Source: a virus
Taxonomy: Duplodnaviria; Caudoviricetes
Virus record (IMG/VR): IMGVR_UViG_3300029288_000106
Span: 32,001-96,000 of that record
DNA: 64,000 nt
Strand: one strand, 5' to 3'
In this document: piece after piece, positions 1-24,723 of the stretch
How positions within the stretch are numbered: position 1 is the stretch's first letter
Layout of the letters: each line of letters begins with the position of its first letter
Program-made: the position numbers and the translations under genes
Notes under the pieces: generated by a model
What the model was told of the DNA's origin: nothing
The model's database searches: none
What the model saw: the letters and a program-made list of their open reading frames with translations, nothing else

Positions 1-87
1 TAATTGTTGATATAACATTTATTATGCTCTCAAACAAATAACAAGTATAAAAATATATACGAACTTTTTTATAAAATTTCTTATAAA

Positions 88-2628
88 TTATTTTAATTTT
101 TGCATCTCATAATAATTTTCTCCCCACTCCCACGATATGCTAAAATTAAGACCTCTTTGCCAATCAAATACTTTAGTCTCGAAAATTTTCTTAACATTCA
201 TCATCACAGTCTCTAACTCATCTAAATGTGTATCAAATAATACACTATCGTGTGTTTCAGATCGAATAATGGTATTAAATCTTTCTCTTGTTAAAAATTC
301 ATTTATTCTACGAACAGCATCAAAAACAAAATGAAAAGCTGGACCTTGAACTGGAGTATTATAAATTTGCTCTATACTTAATGGAGCATACCGCCTAAAT
401 CCTGTAACGCATGTTATGAATCCATATTGTTGGTATTCGGCTAAAGTTCTATTCTGCCATTCTTTAACTTCAGCATACTCCTCCCAGAACAACTTCTGAA
501 CTGCTTCAATATGATCTCTGTTCATACCTATAGCCCCAGCTATTGAAGCAGGAACGGCTCCATATAAAGAAGCAAAAACAAACATATTTTTTGCATTAAA
601 TCTCTCTAAACCAGTAATTTCTGATTCTGGTTTTTTATATAATCTTGCTGCCCATCTTCTATGTACATCAACTCCTGCAAGCAGCTGTCGAATAAGAGTT
701 CTATCTCCCGAAACCATTGCAACAGTTGTTACTTCAATACCATTTACATCTGATTCAAGAAAAATATGGTTGGGACGAGGAATAATAATTTTTCTAAATT
801 TCATTAACTCTTCATCATGTTTAAACATATTCTGAACATTTGGATCAGTTGTACTTGAACGAAATGTCTCTGCAATATTCATAGTAAAACAAGGATGAAG
901 GTAGCCATCTTCTTTCAAACATCCTCTATACTCTTTAACTCGCTTTTTAAAACTCACAACTTTCCTATATTCTTTCACAAGTTGTGCTGATGACAAAACA
1001 AGAGGATCTTTATCTTTTCTTAATATGTCTTCTATTACTTCAGCATCGAGACTATAATTTCCTTCTTTTGTAACTCTTTGTATTCTTGTTCTAAGTATAT
1101 TGTAAAATAAATTTGGTAAATCTACATTAGATTGAATATTAATATCATGCTCATACTTTTCTTTAAATTTTAATCCTATTTCACTCTGAACCAATTCTTT
1201 CTGATATCTCACTATATCTGCATTTGCTTCTTCTTCAAAAGTATCAAGTTGTTTTCTATCAACTGGAAATCCTCGTTCTGTCATATCCACAAACGTCGAA
1301 AGGCCTTTATGTAAAAATTCATAAAAATCTCTCTGACACTTATTCTCTGGTCTATCAAAATACTCTTTAATAACCAAATATAACATATACTGATATCGAG
1401 CATCAAGACAGTTATATGGGTATAATCGCTCAATTGGCTCTTGATCCATCTTCTTAATGTTTACATCTCCTTTGTAAACATCTCCGGTCATCTGAAATAC
1501 CTGATACTCTAATGATGTAGTTCCAGATTTGCAAAATCTAACATGAGATGCAACCATCGTGTCCATAATAATATTATTAACTCTCGTGCCAAATTTAGCT
1601 CTTGACCAAGTCTCTTCCATATTAAAATTCTGTACAACTTTAGGAGTAGAACTTGCAAGAAATGCTTTAAATGCTTGCACTACATAAGCTTGACAAGGAA
1701 GAGACCAAGTAGGATTATCAAGCCATATACAATACCCTTCATCTATACTAGACGAAAATCCTATTGATAAAGGTCTTGCCCCTACCTCGTAAGGACTTAA
1801 TCGATTTGCTTCATAATCAAAAGACACAACAAAATTAACATCAGTTATTGATTTCAAAAACTCAATAGCATCATCTGGATTATCTATTAGATAATTACCT
1901 GATCTATCTAGTGGTTTGGGCAATGGTTTATTGAGATATTCTTTGAGTATTGATGCTATATCCCTCTTGAACACAGGATCAACCGAAGGATCATATAATG
2001 TACTTGCTGGATGATATGTTAATCCTACCCACGATTGATAATTCTGATAAGGATAAACATAACCATGAATTCTGCTAACAGCCAGTAAATCAGCTCTTTT
2101 GCCTTTAAAAACATCGTTTTTCATCACAGCTTTCATTGCTACATCACCTAAGCAAATAATAAGCTGTGGTTTAACTTCTTCAATATCTTTCATCAAATTA
2201 GCAAAACAACACTTAATTTGATCATTCGTAGGAGTTGCATTTCGAGGAGGATGACAACGTATAACGTTTGTTCTAACACAATCTCTATCAATATTAATTC
2301 CAGATTGTTGTAAAACAGAAGATAAGTACTGACCAGATTCTCCTACAAAAGGTTTACCTTCCCCATCTTCTGTTCGGCCTGGAGCTTCGCCTATTAATAA
2401 AATTTTCTTTTGTCCTTGACCATACCTCTGCATCTTCGGAGAATGACACCTTTCCGAAAGACCACAAGTTGAACAATTATAAACTTCAGGAGATGGAGTT
2501 GATGCTTTTCTACTTCGGCCTGTGCTTGATTTTGAACTACTTCTTACAGTAGATTTATTCTTCTCTTCTTGTCTCTTCTGATACAGAAGTTCGTTCTCAG
2601 TATAGAAAAAAGCTGGTTGACTACTCAT
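88..2628 (-). CDS. polA: Family A DNA polymerase with N-terminal family-4 uracil-DNA glycosylase and 3'-5' exonuclease domains
   Basis: UDG4 motifs CxxC, GEAPG, RCHPP, TYHPA; exonuclease DYE; Pol A motifs ESDVNGIE, RFNAKNMFVFASLYG, NTPVQG, THDS. Confidence 0.93.
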   Translation of the reverse strand: MSSQPAFFYTENELLYQKRQEEKNKSTVRSSSKSSTGRSRKASTPSPEVYNCSTCGLSERCHSPKMQRYGQGQKKILLIGEAPGRTEDGEGKPFVGESGQYLSSVLQQSGINIDRDCVRTNVIRCHPPRNATPTNDQIKCCFANLMKDIEEVKPQLIICLGDVAMKAVMKNDVFKGKRADLLAVSRIHGYVYPYQNYQSWVGLTYHPASTLYDPSVDPVFKRDIASILKEYLNKPLPKPLDRSGNYLIDNPDDAIEFLKSITDVNFVVSFDYEANRLSPYEVGARPLSIGFSSSIDEGYCIWLDNPTWSLPCQAYVVQAFKAFLASSTPKVVQNFNMEETWSRAKFGTRVNNIIMDTMVASHVRFCKSGTTSLEYQVFQMTGDVYKGDVNIKKMDQEPIERLYPYNCLDARYQYMLYLVIKEYFDRPENKCQRDFYEFLHKGLSTFVDMTERGFPVDRKQLDTFEEEANADIVRYQKELVQSEIGLKFKEKYEHDINIQSNVDLPNLFYNILRTRIQRVTKEGNYSLDAEVIEDILRKDKDPLVLSSAQLVKEYRKVVSFKKRVKEYRGCLKEDGYLHPCFTMNIAETFRSSTTDPNVQNMFKHDEELMKFRKIIIPRPNHIFLESDVNGIEVTTVAMVSGDRTLIRQLLAGVDVHRRWAARLYKKPESEITGLERFNAKNMFVFASLYGAVPASIAGAIGMNRDHIEAVQKLFWEEYAEVKEWQNRTLAEYQQYGFITCVTGFRRYAPLSIEQIYNTPVQGPAFHFVFDAVRRINEFLTRERFNTIIRSETHDSVLFDTHLDELETVMMNVKKIFETKVFDWQRGLNFSISWEWGENYYEMQKLK

Positions 2629-3659
2629 AATTTAGGCTGCTTTTCTATCACAACATAAATAAGCTTCTCTGTGACAAATAATATAGCTCCTTTTGTTGTG
2701 TACGTAAGAGAATTACAAATAGGTGCAATTTCTTTTAAGAATAACGGATTAACAGAAAATTCAATTCTCTGCTTTACTGGATTAGTTAATTCCACTTCCT
2801 CTTCTAACTTTCCTAAATCTTTATCAACTGATGTAAATATACATTTTGTGCCTTCAACTACTACTCGTATCTCTTTATCAAGAGTTTGAATGTTTTTAAG
2901 GAGAGTGATATGCCTATCTAAAATCTCATTAAGAGAAGCAGGAAAATCTAAATTATCTACAATTGTTTCTTGTGGTGGAATAAATTGAAGAAGATTTTTA
3001 TACTCTCCTCTTAAAAGAACAGAAGAAAGAATTGTCCCATCATTCATCTCTATCACAATCTGATTATCTTCAATTAAACCGATTTTCATAATTTCTTTTT
3101 TGAAAGACAAAATTGTCTGAACAAGTTTAATTGGAAGAGTACAAGGATTAGCAAGAAGATTTTCTTTAGCAGTAAAATTAGCTATTCTATATCTATCTGT
3201 ACTAAACATATCTTTACCGTCTACTCTTACTCCACATAGTGGCCCTACTGAACTATCTTTTGAAACACTATATTGACAGAATTGAAAGCCTTCATATAAT
3301 TCAAGTGAAACTTCTTGCATATTCTCACAAACCAGCAGCTGAGGAATTGATGATAATTGAGCAAGAGTAAATGTACCTACAATCTTTTTGTCTTTTATTA
3401 AAACTCTTGTATCCTCCAGTTCTAATTCAATTGTATCTGAAGAAAGACTCTCGAGTAAAAACAAGAAAGAAAGTCCTGGAATAGCAAAAGTAGCTTGAAG
3501 ATCTGGACAAGATGCTTTGATTATCATTGTTCCATCGGTTGCTACAACTCTATCATTTTGAAAAATAAAACATTGAAATGTTGGAACAAGTACGTTAATT
3601 CCTAATGCTGGCTTTACTCTATTAAGTGCTTTTACTAACTCCTTACGATCTACTATCAT
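2625..3659 (-). CDS. dnaN: DnaN/beta-type sliding clamp
   Basis: 344 aa; VVATDG and FSTDRYR beta-clamp motifs; 4-nt overlap with polymerase start. Confidence 0.8.
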   Translation of the reverse strand: MIVDRKELVKALNRVKPALGINVLVPTFQCFIFQNDRVVATDGTMIIKASCPDLQATFAIPGLSFLFLLESLSSDTIELELEDTRVLIKDKKIVGTFTLAQLSSIPQLLVCENMQEVSLELYEGFQFCQYSVSKDSSVGPLCGVRVDGKDMFSTDRYRIANFTAKENLLANPCTLPIKLVQTILSFKKEIMKIGLIEDNQIVIEMNDGTILSSVLLRGEYKNLLQFIPPQETIVDNLDFPASLNEILDRHITLLKNIQTLDKEIRVVVEGTKCIFTSVDKDLGKLEEEVELTNPVKQRIEFSVNPLFLKEIAPICNSLTYTTKGAILFVTEKLIYVVIEKQPKL

Positions 3660-3681
3660 ACCACTATCCTTTCCTTATTTT

Positions 3682-3834
3682 TTATAGTGTTTTAATAACT
3701 TTTACTAAATAACACCCACAATCAGTTTGAATAGGAAATTCAATTTGATCTGCACCCATAATTTCAAGATGCTCTACTAAATTCTCTGCAATTTTCCTAC
3801 CTTGAACTTGTTCCTCATTTAACTCTTCACACAT
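3682..3834 (-). CDS. Small hypothetical protein (50 aa, MCEELNEEQ...)
   Basis: ATG-TAA ORF read manually in the gap, co-oriented. Confidence 0.5.
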   Translation of the reverse strand: MCEELNEEQVQGRKIAENLVEHLEIMGADQIEFPIQTDCGCYLVKVIKTL

Positions 3835-3887
3835 TTTTACTTCTCAATATAGCTTTACATCTAACTTCATCTGACCATACAACAACA

Positions 3888-4241
3888 TTAGGCATTTTCT
3901 ATATTCTTAACTTCAATAGATTTAGGAACAATAAAAACATCAAAACAAGCTTCTTGTAAACAAAGTATTGAAATTAATGCTGCTCTATGAATTTCATTGG
4001 GAATAACACGTAATGCTATATTAGAATTGTTAGAAAAAGCTCTGTTCAAATGCTCTTGAACTGTTTTAGCAATATTAGTTCTCAATTCAAAACTATCTTT
4101 CTCAAACAAATAAGATTGCAAAATAGGCTTTATAATACTTGAAATCTCAAGGTCAACACCGTCTTCTCTAATTATCAGTATATCTGCTCTTGCTTTGAAT
4201 CTTTCAATCCTATCTTCAACACCTTCTCTAACACTTTCCAT
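3888..4241 (-). CDS. Hypothetical protein
   Basis: 117-aa ORF with AGGAG SD. Confidence 0.7.
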   Translation of the reverse strand: MESVREGVEDRIERFKARADILIIREDGVDLEISSIIKPILQSYLFEKDSFELRTNIAKTVQEHLNRAFSNNSNIALRVIPNEIHRAALISILCLQEACFDVFIVPKSIEVKNIENA

Positions 4242-4256
4242 TCATTTCTCCTTGCA

Positions 4257-5342
4257 TCAAAATAAAGTTTTAATGGCTCTAAACTCTTCGATTGACGGAG
4301 CAATGCCTTTTGCTAATAACTGAGAAAAATACATTACATTAACTTTCTGTCGCTCGTGATGAGATGTTTCTAAAGCCAGTAAATCGATATCTAATCCTTT
4401 CAAGTAGCTTTCTATCTTTTCTTTCTCTTCTTCAGTATAAGCTGTTGTATAATGAGGATTAGTAACATTAGGTCTAATCTTTGCTTCTTCTGATACAACA
4501 ACAGCTAATGGAGGTAAAGTAAAATCAAACTCTCCTTTAATATTACATTTAGGTACAACGACATTACCAAAAGCAGCACTCTTTAACCACGACGTACTAT
4601 CTACTGAATAAAATGGAAATCGCTGTATCATATCAACAGATGTTACAGCAAAACCATGTACTTTAAGTTGAGGATTAACTTCAGCAATTATTTGAAAACA
4701 CTGATACGCAAATGTAAGAAAATCAGCTTTCCTCAAACCAGTAGCCATTCCACCTAAACCAATATACTCATATTCTTCAGCATATTTTTTCAACCACTTA
4801 AAATCTTCAAGAAAATGAAATACTGGAAGAGGTTTTAAACCATTTGACTCCATATATTTCTGATTTTCCCATGATTTTTCAGCATTGTAAATAATATCAA
4901 GATTAACATAAGCATGAAGCTGATCTTTGTATTTATGTACAAATGCAATGTACTCATCAAGGTACTTCCTAACTTCTGTATTATCAGCAAGGGAAAAATC
5001 TGCCATCCCCTGAACCATGCTTCTCTGTTTTTCTGCAAAAAATATTTGTGCATTTGAATCCAGCCTTTCTCTAAACTCCTCTTCTGAAAATGTTCTTATT
5101 CCTTCCACCTTTTCTGAATTAACTGTTGAATTGCTATTAATCAAACCTGTCATTGCATTAAGCAACGAATGTGCTCCTGAGTCCATAAATATACTTAATT
5201 TAGAGTTGCTGTCTAAAAGCTTTGCTACATCTTTTCCTTTCCAAAACGTTTCAAGCGAAGCAACTTCCCCTGACAACAATTTATCAGTCCAAAATCCTTC
5301 TTTATTAGATGTAGCAAGATTTGCCATATAAATATATTTCAT
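4257..5342 (-). CDS. dpdA: DpdA/TGT-like 7-deazaguanine DNA transglycosylase
   Basis: TGT-barrel motifs MDSGAHS, NLDII, PVFH, IGLGG, VHGFA, SVDSTSW; operon with queE; folE and queC also present. Confidence 0.75.
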   Translation of the reverse strand: MKYIYMANLATSNKEGFWTDKLLSGEVASLETFWKGKDVAKLLDSNSKLSIFMDSGAHSLLNAMTGLINSNSTVNSEKVEGIRTFSEEEFRERLDSNAQIFFAEKQRSMVQGMADFSLADNTEVRKYLDEYIAFVHKYKDQLHAYVNLDIIYNAEKSWENQKYMESNGLKPLPVFHFLEDFKWLKKYAEEYEYIGLGGMATGLRKADFLTFAYQCFQIIAEVNPQLKVHGFAVTSVDMIQRFPFYSVDSTSWLKSAAFGNVVVPKCNIKGEFDFTLPPLAVVVSEEAKIRPNVTNPHYTTAYTEEEKEKIESYLKGLDIDLLALETSHHERQKVNVMYFSQLLAKGIAPSIEEFRAIKTLF

Positions 5343-6067
5343 TTCACTAATTGCTCCTGTCGAGAATCATAAATTAAAATAGCTTGTTTTGGTATATTGT
5401 TATTTTTTAGCATACTATCAAGATTTTCTAAATAGACTAATATTTCTGGCCACCAAGTATCAAGATCTAAAGCTTGAGCCAGATCACAAAGCTTTCTAAG
5501 CAAAGGCAAATCCCAATCTCTATATACGTTATAATCAAAAGAAGTTTCTTTAGCTTTACAACCAAACAACCAATTCCTTCCATATTGCCTTTTAGTTAAT
5601 CGAGCTATGCCTTGCTTATTGCCATCAATATGCATATGAGGCAAGGCACAATGCAAAGGCTTAATAGAATGAATCTGGCATAAATTATCTTTTAAAAACC
5701 GACATCTTTTACTATCATTTTGATAAGCTTTAATCTCGTAACTCTTTTCATTTATCTTAACCACAAAATTATGGCATTTTTTTATATCAAGAACAGTAAG
5801 GTCATCAACATAATTATCAAAACAAACAGCTTTACTTGCTAAATACACCAACGAAACAGGCCTTTTTGAACAACACTCTCCACAAGTACTACACTTAAAA
5901 TTACGAAAGAACTTTTCAGAAATTTCAACCTTTTTTGGAGGACTAACTTTTAACTTATAATTCTTTGCAAAAGTAATTGTAATATCATGTTTGGTTAGTC
6001 GATAAATATATTGAAACATATAAACAACTGAGCCAAGCAAATTCTCATCATATTTCTCAAGAATCAT
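5339..6067 (-). CDS. YkgJ-family CxxCxxCC metal/Fe-S cluster protein
   Basis: CSTCGECC and CRFL-x4-CQIHSIKPLHC. Confidence 0.75.
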   Translation of the reverse strand: MILEKYDENLLGSVVYMFQYIYRLTKHDITITFAKNYKLKVSPPKKVEISEKFFRNFKCSTCGECCSKRPVSLVYLASKAVCFDNYVDDLTVLDIKKCHNFVVKINEKSYEIKAYQNDSKRCRFLKDNLCQIHSIKPLHCALPHMHIDGNKQGIARLTKRQYGRNWLFGCKAKETSFDYNVYRDWDLPLLRKLCDLAQALDLDTWWPEILVYLENLDSMLKNNNIPKQAILIYDSRQEQLVK

Positions 6068-6978
6068 CAGAAAAATCCTTTTTGTTCTTCTTTTACTTTA
6101 ATTTGTGAATACATATAACTCTTCACTTCATATGATGGATAATGTGTTTTAAATAAAGACAAATTTTTGTTCAATTGAGCACCACAATTAAATTTCTTCA
6201 TGCCTCTCTGATACAAATCTCTCAGTACATAAATATCAAGCCATTCCATCATATTAGATGGAAGTTCCCAGTACTTACCAAAATTTGCTAAATCATAAGC
6301 TATGTCTTTTTGTATACCCACAACACGAACTGCAATTAACTGCTTAGCCATACAAAAACAATAAACAAAATAACCTACATGTTGAATTGCATAATCATAA
6401 CAACGAATATATCGATTAGTTGGAAACATTATTTTAAATGTGTTAGGATCAGCAAGTTTATGCTCTACCCACTCATCATGTAGAAGTTTTACTGCATTAC
6501 TATCAACTTCGCTTGACATGAATGATCTTGTTTTTACTTTATATCTTTCTAACTGTTTAAACGGATATATTAATCGTTGATATCTTTTTTTCTTATTTGG
6601 ATACGAATTAGGATTTAAAACTTTCTCAAGATCGTATCCAATTTCAATAAAAGAGTGAGCACCAGACAAAAAAACTTCAGGGTAGAGAGAATAAATAGGC
6701 CCTAATTTTATCAAGTAATCAATAAGTTTTCTTTGTATTTTATCATTCTCTGGATTGAAACAGAAACTTTTAAATCGGCCCTGAACAGAAGGAAGAAGAA
6801 GTATATTTCCTTCAAAAACAATCAAGCCATACATATTTCTTATTTCATCTAAATTGAAGTATGTATTCAACACTGGAAGAGAAAAATTATGTACTCCCTT
6901 ATTATCAAGATCCTCTATAGAAGTTAATTTCTTCTTATATTGATGAAGATCGCTGAGTATTGTTTGTATTTTGCTCAA
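6067..6978 (-). CDS. DUF2156/aminoacyl-PG-synthase-C-like (Fem/GNAT fold) putative aminoacyl-tRNA-dependent transferase
   Basis: Ordered pattern GYDLEKV..KKKRYQRL..HDEWVEHK..QLIAVRV..GMKKFNCG..NLSLFKTHYP resembles DUF2156; no TM segments; TTG start. Confidence 0.55.
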   Translation of the reverse strand: MSKIQTILSDLHQYKKKLTSIEDLDNKGVHNFSLPVLNTYFNLDEIRNMYGLIVFEGNILLLPSVQGRFKSFCFNPENDKIQRKLIDYLIKLGPIYSLYPEVFLSGAHSFIEIGYDLEKVLNPNSYPNKKKRYQRLIYPFKQLERYKVKTRSFMSSEVDSNAVKLLHDEWVEHKLADPNTFKIMFPTNRYIRCYDYAIQHVGYFVYCFCMAKQLIAVRVVGIQKDIAYDLANFGKYWELPSNMMEWLDIYVLRDLYQRGMKKFNCGAQLNKNLSLFKTHYPSYEVKSYMYSQIKVKEEQKGFF

Positions 6979-6986
6979 TTAAAAAC

Positions 6987-7172
6987 TCATACAATATTAT
7001 ATTTTTCTACTATGTCACAAATCCACTTAACTCTACCTGGTGTCATTTCATATTCTGGATGATCTACCATATCAATTATAAATTTCTTCTCTTTCTCAGT
7101 TAATCGAGTAGCTAGTAAATCAATAGCTTTTAATAATCTTTTTGCTTCTTCAATATCTATACTATCGCTCAT
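6987..7172 (-). CDS. Small hypothetical protein (61 aa)
   Basis: ATG at 7172 overlapping queE end; longer track start unlikely. Confidence 0.6.
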   Translation of the reverse strand: MSDSIDIEEAKRLLKAIDLLATRLTEKEKKFIIDMVDHPEYEMTPGRVKWICDIVEKYNIV

Positions 7173-7851
7173 GTGTCGCTCCAGGCCATAATACTTTATG
7201 TATTTGTAGAGAATAACTAACATCAGGTATCATATGAGCTTCATCTATCATCATTTCAGCTAATGCCTTTGGCCAGCCAGTAAAAATATCTGAATATTTG
7301 ATAGCAGGACTAAATACTTTCCTGGCCTTCCATGTATCTCTATTAGCTAAAACCAACCCCCGAGCTATGTAAAAATCATTAATTCCATCAATCACAAATT
7401 TAATAACATCACAATCCCGAAGTTGAAAAAAAGTCATAGCTCTCATTTGATCTTCCATTTTTGATGATGGAAGTTTATAATCAACAATCAAACGAAGATT
7501 TTCTTTAGCTAGCATATGATTAAATAAATCGTGTGAAACACTTAAACTGCCATTTGTCTCGATCGATACTCTATGTTTTCTATCAAGAAGACCAAGTACA
7601 AGTTGGGTAGTTTCTTCTTGAATTAAAGGTTCTCCACCAGTTATTGTGACTTTTGGTAAGATATTGAGTTTTAATATATCTTCAACAGATTTTAACTCTT
7701 TTGCCTTCTGGTCTTGAGCATATTTTGTATCACAAAATTCACACCTTAAGTTACATCCTCTTAAACGAATAAATGTACAGAGCTCGCCTGCTCCATTAAA
7801 TCCATTAACTTCACCATCGATACTATCAAAAATAGCCTGAATATTTAACAT
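7162..7851 (-). CDS. queE: 7-carboxy-7-deazaguanine synthase (radical SAM)
   Basis: FDSIDGE, FIRLRGCNLRCEFCDT, TGGEP, ETNG, LQIHK. Confidence 0.93.
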   Translation of the reverse strand: MLNIQAIFDSIDGEVNGFNGAGELCTFIRLRGCNLRCEFCDTKYAQDQKAKELKSVEDILKLNILPKVTITGGEPLIQEETTQLVLGLLDRKHRVSIETNGSLSVSHDLFNHMLAKENLRLIVDYKLPSSKMEDQMRAMTFFQLRDCDVIKFVIDGINDFYIARGLVLANRDTWKARKVFSPAIKYSDIFTGWPKALAEMMIDEAHMIPDVSYSLQIHKVLWPGATHER

Positions 7852-7985
7852 ATCTAACCCTCAAAATAAAATACTTGTTTTATCAGATATATACGTAAAA
7901 TATTTTAAGATTTGTTTGAAATTTTATAAAAAATTAATCGTATAAAATTAAAAATACAAATTAAGATTTTGTAGGATATTAGTAT

Positions 7986-9200
7986 ATGATAGAAAATATT
8001 GTGGTTAAAACAATGCAGGAACTAATCAATCTTCTCTATATATACACTAAAGAGAGAGATACATTAGATGAAGATTTGTCTAAATTGAATATTGATGATT
8101 TTGAAAGACTTAGAGCAGTAGTAGAAGTGCCTTATATCAAAGCAAAAATAAACCACATCGATGAGAAATCAAAATCAATCGATCAGACCACGTCCCCACA
8201 TCGATCAGACCACATCGATGAGAAATCAAAATCAATCGATCAGACCACGTCCCCACATCGATCAGACCACATCGATGAGAAATCAAAATCAATCGATCAG
8301 ACCACGTCCCCACATCGATCAGACCACGTCCCCACATCGATCAGACCTGTAAACTGCTGTGAGGATATTTATAATAAAATAAATAATAATAATATATATA
8401 ATAATATCCCCACAGCAAATCAATCTCACAGCAGTAGTCCCCACAGCAGTTGTGATGATCAAGTCGATGTGGTTACAGCTGCCCCTCCAGCGATCGACCA
8501 ATCCCACATCGATGAGAAATCAAAATCAATCGATCAGACCACAGCAAAAAAGAAGTCAACCACCGATGAGAATTCTATTGCTTATCAACTTACACAACTG
8601 CTACTTGATTTGATTTTAGAAAGACGACCCACCAGATTTGGCGGAGAATTAATTGAAAAGGGTGAAGCATATAAGAAAAAAATAAAATCATGGGTCGATT
8701 ATATGGATTACATTATTCGAATTGATAAACATGACCCAGAAAAAGTTCTTAATGTAATTTTGTGGTGCCAAAAAAATGAATTTTGGCAGAAAAATATTTT
8801 GTCTACAAGTAAATTGAGAGAACAGTACGGCAGACTTGAAGATTTAATGGATGCAGAAAATCCAACCACAGCAGAAATAACTGAAGATAAAAATTCACAA
8901 CTTACTATAGAAATTACATATGAATATGAAAAAGAAGTCCTTAATTCACCAAACCCAAATAATTGTCCAGTTGATTGGTCAGCTGAAAATAAAAAGAAAT
9001 TCATAAAAGCAGCTGAAAAAGCAAGAGAATTTGCAAACAAGTTTAAAATTAGACCAGAAAACATGGCTAAGTATTTAATCAGAGCATTAAAACAAAGTAA
9101 AATAGGATCTACACCTCTAGCTCCTGGTCATTTATGTTCAGATCATATGTGGACAGTAGTTATGCCACAATTTATTGATGAACTTGGATTGATTAATTAA
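7986..9200 (+). CDS. Phage replication initiator / replisome organiser-like protein
   Basis: IRIDK..VILWCQKNEFWQKNILSTSKLREQYGRL is typical of the lambdoid O-type C-terminal domain; internal DNA repeats; upstream of helicase. Confidence 0.7.
   Translation: MIENIVVKTMQELINLLYIYTKERDTLDEDLSKLNIDDFERLRAVVEVPYIKAKINHIDEKSKSIDQTTSPHRSDHIDEKSKSIDQTTSPHRSDHIDEKSKSIDQTTSPHRSDHVPTSIRPVNCCEDIYNKINNNNIYNNIPTANQSHSSSPHSSCDDQVDVVTAAPPAIDQSHIDEKSKSIDQTTAKKKSTTDENSIAYQLTQLLLDLILERRPTRFGGELIEKGEAYKKKIKSWVDYMDYIIRIDKHDPEKVLNVILWCQKNEFWQKNILSTSKLREQYGRLEDLMDAENPTTAEITEDKNSQLTIEITYEYEKEVLNSPNPNNCPVDWSAENKKKFIKAAEKAREFANKFKIRPENMAKYLIRALKQSKIGSTPLAPGHLCSDHMWTVVMPQFIDELGLIN
8152..8347 (+). repeat. 3 exact 57-bp tandem repeats plus a partial copy (probable iterons); further partial copy at 8503-8541
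   Basis: Unit ACCACATCGATGAGAAATCAAAATCAATCGATCAGACCACGTCCCCACATCGATCAG. Confidence 0.97.
8365..8407. other. 43-bp A/T-only tract, candidate DNA unwinding element
   Basis: Only A and T; lies just after the iterons. Confidence 0.55.
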
Positions 9201-24652: not shown

Positions 24653-24723
24653 GGGGCTGTAGTTTAACTGGCAAAACGCTTTATTACGGTAAAGAATTAT
24701 AGGTTCAAATCCTATCGGCTCCA
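24653..24723 (+). tRNA. Atypical tRNA: Ala-type acceptor stem, 6-nt anticodon loop (UUACGG), no encoded CCA
   Basis: GGGGCTG/CGGCTCC-A; D-stem GTTT/AAAC with GG; anticodon stem CTTTA/TAAAG; T-arm ATAGG-TTCAAAT-CCTAT. Confidence 0.8.

Follow-up and report, generated by a model that had tools for sequence, protein, structure and literature searches.

Clients of the bacterial beta clamp, among them Pol III alpha, Pol II, IV and V, MutS and MutL, and Hda, share the motif QL[S/D]LF; on the gp45 clamp of phage T4, the gp43 polymerase and gp33/gp55 bind by C-terminal tails with an LDFL motif, and DNMT1 is recruited by PCNA (PMC9690074). MuC of phage Mu uses the host beta clamp, so that clamp-binding motifs on phage proteins have a precedent (PMC12867686), and an earlier survey noted phages encoding PolA together with a beta-clamp homologue, leaving their interaction unexplained (PMC3201878). 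The DNA 7-deazaguanine transglycosylase DpdA is thought to be post-replicative, yet it replaces up to a third or more of the guanines in some phages, and how it keeps pace with replication is left unexplained (PMC10516641). Here we have analysed a 64,000-nt stretch (hereafter the window) within a 105-kb IMG/VR record of an uncultured phage, in which dpdA lies in one gene string with a beta-type sliding clamp, a UDG-PolA DNA polymerase and a 303-amino-acid (aa) putative transferase. The polymerase open reading frame (ORF) opens MSSQPAFFY, the DpdA ORF closes RAIKTLF and the 303-aa ORF closes EEQKGFF. We favour, as the probable explanation of the sequence patterns described below, that these three termini are shared clamp-binding peptides which tether base exchange, plus tailoring in this clade, to the phage replisome.

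The N-terminal peptide of the polymerase is followed by a basic low-complexity linker, a family-4 UDG domain, a 3'-5' exonuclease region and the PolA domain, in that order. Among its 30 closest UDG-PolA homologues (34-48% identity), F[FLYI] lies within the first 14 residues in 29, and the sole exception has a shorter N-terminus. These termini follow the consensus M-x-K-Q-x-A-F-F-[LM]-[SD]-x-x-E, and in 21 of the 29 a Q precedes the FF pair by three residues. The peptide varies as QxAFF, GFF, SFFY and SLW in related loci, down to about 25% identity. For a wider comparison, a DpdA alignment retrieved 80 IMG/VR loci, in which clamps were called with custom hidden Markov models, and a narrower UDG-PolA alignment fetched a control set of 80 loci whose UDG-PolA has no N-terminal extension. 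Clamp-bearing loci had the N-terminal peptide in 44 of 50 polymerases under a strict rule (44-47 of 50 when two or three non-ATG starts are counted), and the control loci showed a chance motif in 3 of 76. A clamp was present in 68 of the 80 DpdA loci, as against none within 10 kb in the 80 control loci; the polymerase peptide therefore travels with the clamp.

The C-terminus of DpdA is conserved in the same manner. Of 373 homologues found, the 63 closest all have a hydrophobic pair at the very C-terminus (FF in 44, LF in 11, VF in 4, other in 4) and 43 have K or R four residues from the end, the linker being otherwise variable and basic; more distant DpdAs end KGLF, GFF, GFGL, SLW, GLGW or ELW. 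Across the 80 DpdA loci, 35 of 81 DpdAs end in [FLM][FW], compared with 13 of the remaining 1332 genes (Fisher p = 1e-36). In loci L002-L054 the clamp gene nearly always stands directly after dpdA and before the polymerase gene. The assignment of the phage enzyme is by family: it has a TGT-like sequence, the genome carries preQ synthesis genes, and over its core it is 31-37% identical to the DpdA of 9g, CAjan and Vibrio phages, so that it is predicted to insert 7-deazaguanine into DNA. FolE, QueC, QueD and QueF have their genes in other parts of the genome (QueE in the string), and the expected base is therefore preQ1. Membership in DpdA3, the 'complete replacement' subfamily, was considered and dropped, the nearest cultured relatives being the enzymes of 9g, CAjan and Vibrio phages.

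The tail of the 303-aa protein is less widespread. A K/E-rich extension of 8-20 residues, conserved at its end only, occurs in 9 of 16 homologues, eight of which end GFF, SFF, KLF or VFFK and one GIWG; the other seven stop right after the core. Among the 124 ORFs of the genome, a hydrophobic-F C-terminus is found only in DpdA, the 303-aa protein and one tail-sheath-like protein, and an N-terminal QxxFF only in the polymerase. AF2 models have a pLDDT of 88.6 for DpdA and 87.3 for the 303-aa protein; both tails (DpdA residues 346-361, 303-aa residues 291-303) are without secondary structure at pLDDT 44-77, that of DpdA dropping to 54 and then 44. In these models, the combination of a variable linker, a conserved end and disorder is characteristic of a short linear docking motif. 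Three features of a clamp-binding client are likewise present, namely a flexible terminus, a motif conserved while its flanks vary, and a co-occurring cognate clamp. To the pattern Q-x-x-[LMF]-[FL], QPAFF of the polymerase and QKGFF of the 303-aa protein conform in full, and IKTLF of DpdA in its last two positions only.

The clamp itself, to judge by its profile, is a true DnaN-type beta sliding clamp: built with 61 relatives, the profile matches bacterial DnaN chains in the PDB with E = 1e-23 over residues 2-320, which takes in all three domains, and the representative library holds 1330 relatives. As a single sequence it had no match in Pfam, and searched as a single protein against IMG/VR it returned no relatives, the loci there having been retrieved by the DpdA-alignment search; a phage collection gave no match for window DNA 1-8000 and none for the clamp by tblastn. 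A complex prediction of the clamp with DpdA residues 318-361 (both as alignments), run without controls, returned a score of 0.08 against a mark of 0.32, which is no verdict either way. A reading of the peptides as PIP boxes was rejected, for the spacing is wrong, there is no hydrophobic residue at position 4 of Q-x-x-[ILM]-x-x-[FY]-[FY], and the clamp is of the DnaN type.

The arrangement extends to cultured phages. The dpdA-clamp-polymerase order is also found in 9g, CAjan and Vibrio R31B, in some of which a small ORF separates dpdA from the clamp gene. DpdA ends LQDLFDE in 9g, RVMELF in CAjan and IQGLF in Vibrio R31B, and the polymerase starts MRKDAIGFFW in the first, MRTDAIGFFW in the second, and has ALGLFW in its N-terminus in the third. 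In Streptococcus MS1, DpdA ends KQNRLF, a textbook QxxLF, with DnaN directly downstream; the DpdA of the mycobacteriophage Rosebush ends GASAQ, without the motif, and has no clamp nearby. The peptide is also found on other proteins. In Cellulophaga phi38:2 the tail is missing from DpdA itself, yet is present on two neighbour proteins of the deazaguanine cluster, and the endings SLF, TLF or ELF occur in loci L057-L064 and L073 on the products of other genes located between dpdA and the clamp. Judged by these endings, proteins encoded near these clamps bear the peptide repeatedly.

As to the identity of these additional proteins, those of phi38:2 (L182) are a 217-aa protein ending QVNLF (hyp53; 4155-4808) and a ParB-like nuclease-domain protein ending SVNLF (5528-5992), and several of those encoded between dpdA and the clamp (among L057, L059, L060, L064 and L073) are about 290-300 aa long and end SLF or TLF. 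The RecA homologue of the phage has a C-terminus made of a basic stretch and I-W (RKQRIWI), its relatives in other loci ending RKPRIYS, RKQRVF, RKPRIWQ, RKARVWG or RKKRVWK; RecA might thus belong to the same peptide network, or its ending might be a motif of its own.

Some observations concern the polymerases and DpdAs of particular loci. The extension-less UDG-PolAs (L099-L178; phages of about 35-50 kb) begin about 17 residues ahead of the GEAPG motif, and the existence of such a group without a clamp within 10 kb is in keeping with an old idea, by which the UDG domain can provide processivity there by itself. In two loci (L028 and L044) a region of about 960 residues precedes UDG-PolA in a fusion, so that the N-terminal peptide is missing, and DpdA there ends GGFEI. 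The closest named homologues of DpdA and the polymerase (P0018 and P0139) are on a 7.4-kb contig binned into a 'Candidatus Thorarchaeota' metagenome-assembled genome; the contig is most likely phage DNA wrongly assigned to an archaeon.

We propose that one short linear motif, a small residue plus an F/L-F pair terminating a flexible, mostly basic linker, would be present in three copies and would dock phage proteins onto the phage's own beta-type clamp. The A-family polymerase would dock by its N-terminal copy, ahead of the UDG domain, and DpdA by its C-terminal copy, as would, in this clade, the MprF/FemX-like transferase; loading of the clamp would fall to the phage's own loader, whose gene follows directly on that of the polymerase. 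The clamp would act as a tool-belt holding base-exchange and tailoring enzymes on freshly replicated DNA, with base exchange following the fork and preQ1 taking the place of guanine, to be tailored further before the DNA is exposed to host nucleases. The clamp as the partner, its canonical hydrophobic cleft as the site and the coupling of modification to replication are what we infer from the comparisons above. That clamp-organised 7-deazaguanine hypermodification might be general, from 9g and CAjan (Queuovirinae) to many uncultured lineages, with base exchange and tailoring on nascent DNA, is a wider proposition which we put forward tentatively, with slightly more doubt than trust.

Several observations weigh against clamp docking. 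The canonical pentapeptide has a Q that is missing from the DpdA tails and unconserved in the 303-aa tail. The motif is missing from some DpdAs in clamp-bearing loci (L019-L021, L023, L025, L036 and L041), and the tail from 13 of 22 homologues of the 303-aa protein. Polymerase and DpdA motif types within one phage agree loosely, as where a polymerase with SFF accompanies a DpdA with SLW. A count of the residue before the hydrophobic pair, made by eye over clades that are not independent, had it identical in polymerase and DpdA of the same locus in 14 of 38 cases, with about 8 expected, and speaks neither for nor against docking. Binding of the clamp by these peptides is moreover deduced from sequence. 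Finally, in E. coli, where the phage clamp is absent, 9g DpdA together with Gat-QueC modifies 9-18% of plasmid G (PMC6884629), and the phage's own clamp is therefore unnecessary for catalysis. Tethering may raise efficiency or timing rather than enabling catalysis, or the host clamp may stand in for that of the phage.

Conservation and disorder reveal a docking peptide and say nothing of its partner, which might be a helicase, a primase, the single-stranded DNA-binding protein, a RecA-like recombinase or the clamp loader; the RecA termini, with I-W after a basic stretch here and RVF, RIW or RVW in relatives, add that a wider peptide network may exist. Such a partner is nevertheless unlikely in our estimation, given that the polymerase motif and extension occur only where a clamp is encoded (the 0/80 versus 68/80 contrast), that dpdA adjoins the clamp gene across very distant clades, and that clamps are the partners for which this class of motif is known (PMC9690074). 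The terminal aromatics could instead serve each enzyme separately, through fold-back, DNA contact or intercalation, or oligomerisation, their likeness being convergent: terminal aromatics often pack intramolecularly, basic aromatic-ended tails could bind DNA, and the 9g enzyme is active in E. coli without the phage clamp (PMC6884629). We hold this to be rather less likely still, since AF2 leaves the tails unpacked at low confidence, the length and sequence of the linker vary freely while the end alone is kept, and the same peptide sits on unrelated folds, at either terminus. Hydrophobic C-termini might also be degradation tags by which host proteases remove the modification enzymes at a set time, non-polar C-termini being known protease recognition signals; this would leave the N-terminal copy of the polymerase and the strict co-occurrence with a clamp unexplained, and we judge it highly improbable.

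Motifs of two to five residues are common, about 1% of the other genes in these loci end likewise, and an earlier note on this DNA, which had proposed that the three termini link the modification enzymes to the replisome, cautioned that such short motifs can arise by chance. The Fisher test given above and the conservation in 29/30 polymerases and 63/63 DpdAs, at about 35-50% identity, counter this caveat and refute chance as an explanation, to which we assign practically no weight. The note had also named lack of conservation as a reason to abandon its proposal; the motifs turned out to be conserved and to co-occur with the clamp gene. The polymerase motif tracks the clamp, and the DpdA motif recurs across clades and in the Queuovirinae and is missing in Rosebush, whose dpdA has no clamp nearby; this bears the proposal out as far as these patterns reach; clamp coupling on nascent DNA goes a step beyond them and stays conditional here. 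The label QL[S/D]LF-like suits the polymerase and 303-aa peptides in so far as these fit QxxFF, and suits DpdA, which is without the Q, less well; in the 303-aa tail the Q is not conserved.

The genes concerned form a tight string, all on the minus strand, spanning 7851 down to 88 of the window (Table 1). The positions at which the earlier note had placed the three motifs are exact, and its description of one operon with a beta clamp agrees with the dense packing of the genes on one strand, the family match of the clamp and a simple scan, which found no convincing terminator between the genes of the string; the stop codon of the clamp gene and the start of the polymerase gene overlap as ATGA. 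Directly downstream of the polymerase gene is that of a clamp-loader ATPase (DNA_pol3_delta2/AAA; L090:7060-8019), and the RecA homologue is also encoded downstream of the polymerase, near the clamp loader (L090:4154-5203 = genome 28153-29202, just upstream of the window). After the clamp loader lies the gene of a 352-aa protein without a family match (L090:6005-7063), which may be a second loader subunit. Divergent from the string is a DnaD/O-like replication initiator gene containing three exact in-frame repeats of a 19-residue unit; this is probably the origin region.

Table 1. Features of the gene string and other elements of the window, with positions in the window.
Feature	Position	Strand	Evidence or remark
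QueE-like radical SAM enzyme, first gene of the string	7162..7851	-	phrog_2076 E = 2.5e-32; Pfam Radical_SAM
78-aa ORF between the QueE and 303-aa genes	6987..7223	-	no Pfam/PHROG family match
303-aa tandem-GNAT protein	6067..6978	-	AF2 model and Foldseek
303-aa protein C-terminal extension, residues 291-303, ending QKGFF (proposed clamp-binding motif)	6070..6108	-	AF2: no secondary structure, low pLDDT; QKGFF = 6070-6084
242-aa CxxCxxCC protein (putative Zn/Fe-chelating), without terminal motif	5339..6067	-	Pfam PF03692 E = 3e-6
DpdA, DNA 7-deazaguanine transglycosylase, 361 aa	4257..5342	-	phrog_887 E = 5e-43
DpdA C-terminal tail, residues 346-361, ending KTLF (proposed clamp-binding motif)	4260..4307	-	AF2: no secondary structure; IKTLF = 4260-4274
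117-aa protein in the dpdA-to-clamp interval, without terminal motif	3888..4241	-	no Pfam or PHROG match
Beta-type sliding clamp, 344 aa	2625..3659	-	phrog_947 E = 1e-36
UDG-PolA DNA polymerase, 846 aa	88..2628	-	Pfam UDG E = 1e-24, DNA_pol_A E = 8e-49; phrog_17 E = 1.5e-90
Polymerase N-terminal peptide MSSQPAFFYTENEL (proposed clamp-binding motif)	2587..2628	-	QPAFF = 2605-2619
DnaD/O-like replication initiator	7986..9200	+	phrog_2514 E = 8e-20
tRNA gene	24653..24723	+	54.6 bits vs Rfam tRNA

The 303-aa protein has no Pfam family at E <= 0.01, and its profile, built from 16 homologues, finds no PDB sequence at E <= 1, so that sequence comparison places it in no curated family. Its fold is the tandem GNAT of aminoacyl-tRNA-dependent transferases: the best Foldseek matches of the model are the alanyl- and lysyl-phosphatidylglycerol synthases (A-PGS and L-PGS; MprF C-domain, DUF2156), Sbb17 (an aminoacyl-tRNA-dependent peptide synthase) and FemX (E = 2e-10 to 1e-7, probability 1.00, TM about 0.5). 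It has no membrane domain, and in six other IMG/VR phages its homologues, here without the tail, stand among QueC, QueD, QueE and DpdA genes, a recurrence in deazaguanine clusters that fits an enzyme acting on DNA. It had been argued in the earlier note that a clamp-type tail speaks for DNA rather than lipid as the substrate. The tail does add to that case; the main argument lies rather in the absent membrane domain, the MprF-C/FemX-like fold and the deazaguanine-cluster recurrence. An amine acceptor in the form of dPreQ1 is plausible because QueF is present. The sole tRNA gene in the window has G3:U70 in the acceptor stem (alanine identity) and an abnormal anticodon loop, for which ARAGORN names no anticodon; it might serve the transferase as an aminoacyl donor of its own, and through it the case for the use of an aminoacyl-tRNA donor is circumstantial. 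A precedent for a GNAT enzyme that hypermodifies DNA with a charged tRNA is Mom of phage Mu (PMC13219725).

Our literature search found no paper that links DpdA or the modification enzymes of the Queuovirinae to a clamp or a clamp-binding motif, and a term look-up in PMC6884629 and PMC10516641 found no connection of DpdA with a clamp or of its tail with such a motif. The motif class and the tool-belt principle are already known; what is not described is their use by a base-exchange hypermodification system. If true, clamp tethering would help explain the high modification levels reached by a post-replicative transglycosylase, would give bacterial viruses a first parallel to PCNA-coupled DNMT1, and would broaden the tool-belt role of phage clamps past polymerases and the T4 transcription factors. 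The conserved DpdA tail and the dpdA-clamp adjacency in cultured model phages make the mechanism directly testable. The tail peptide also offers a practical rule for finding further DNA-modification enzymes among the uncharacterised proteins of these loci, and it backs a 303-aa enzyme that works on DNA, possibly by aminoacylating dPreQ1, which would be a new hypermodification.

Among the closest known systems are the QL[S/D]LF clients, with which the peptides described here share a short hydrophobic-F sequence at a flexible terminus; in those systems several enzymes share the motif and compete for one DnaN-type clamp. They differ in that the clamp here is phage-encoded and diverged, FF is preferred and DpdA has K/R-[ST] in place of Q-L, and in that the proposed clients include DNA hypermodification enzymes. 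As with T4 gp45, the phage's own clamp would be a platform for non-polymerase proteins through extreme C-terminal hydrophobic tails; gp45, however, is a PCNA-like trimer with transcription-factor clients, whereas the present clamp is of the beta type and its proposed clients are base-modifying enzymes. In eukaryotes, UNG2 is recruited to PCNA by an N-terminal PIP box, a Q..FF peptide and basic linker ahead of the UDG domain, a layout which resembles that of this polymerase, and DNMT1 and UNG2 alike are DNA-modifying or repair enzymes coupled to replication by a clamp peptide. Unlike in our phage, their peptide is the PIP box Qxx[ILM]xxFF, unmatched here, and DNMT1 methylates rather than exchanging a base. 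In Mu, clamp binding by MuC and hypermodification by Mom are separate systems, and the titles and abstracts of the two Mu papers describe no clamp-tethered modification enzyme. Similar in gene content are the Queuovirinae 9g and CAjan, which have the DpdA family, the preQ pathway genes, the dpdA-clamp-polymerase order and a (D/E)LF tail (PMC6884629 and PMC10516641). Relative to these, with a DpdA core identity of 31-37%, the present phage adds QueF, the CxxCxxCC protein and the MprF/FemX-like enzyme.

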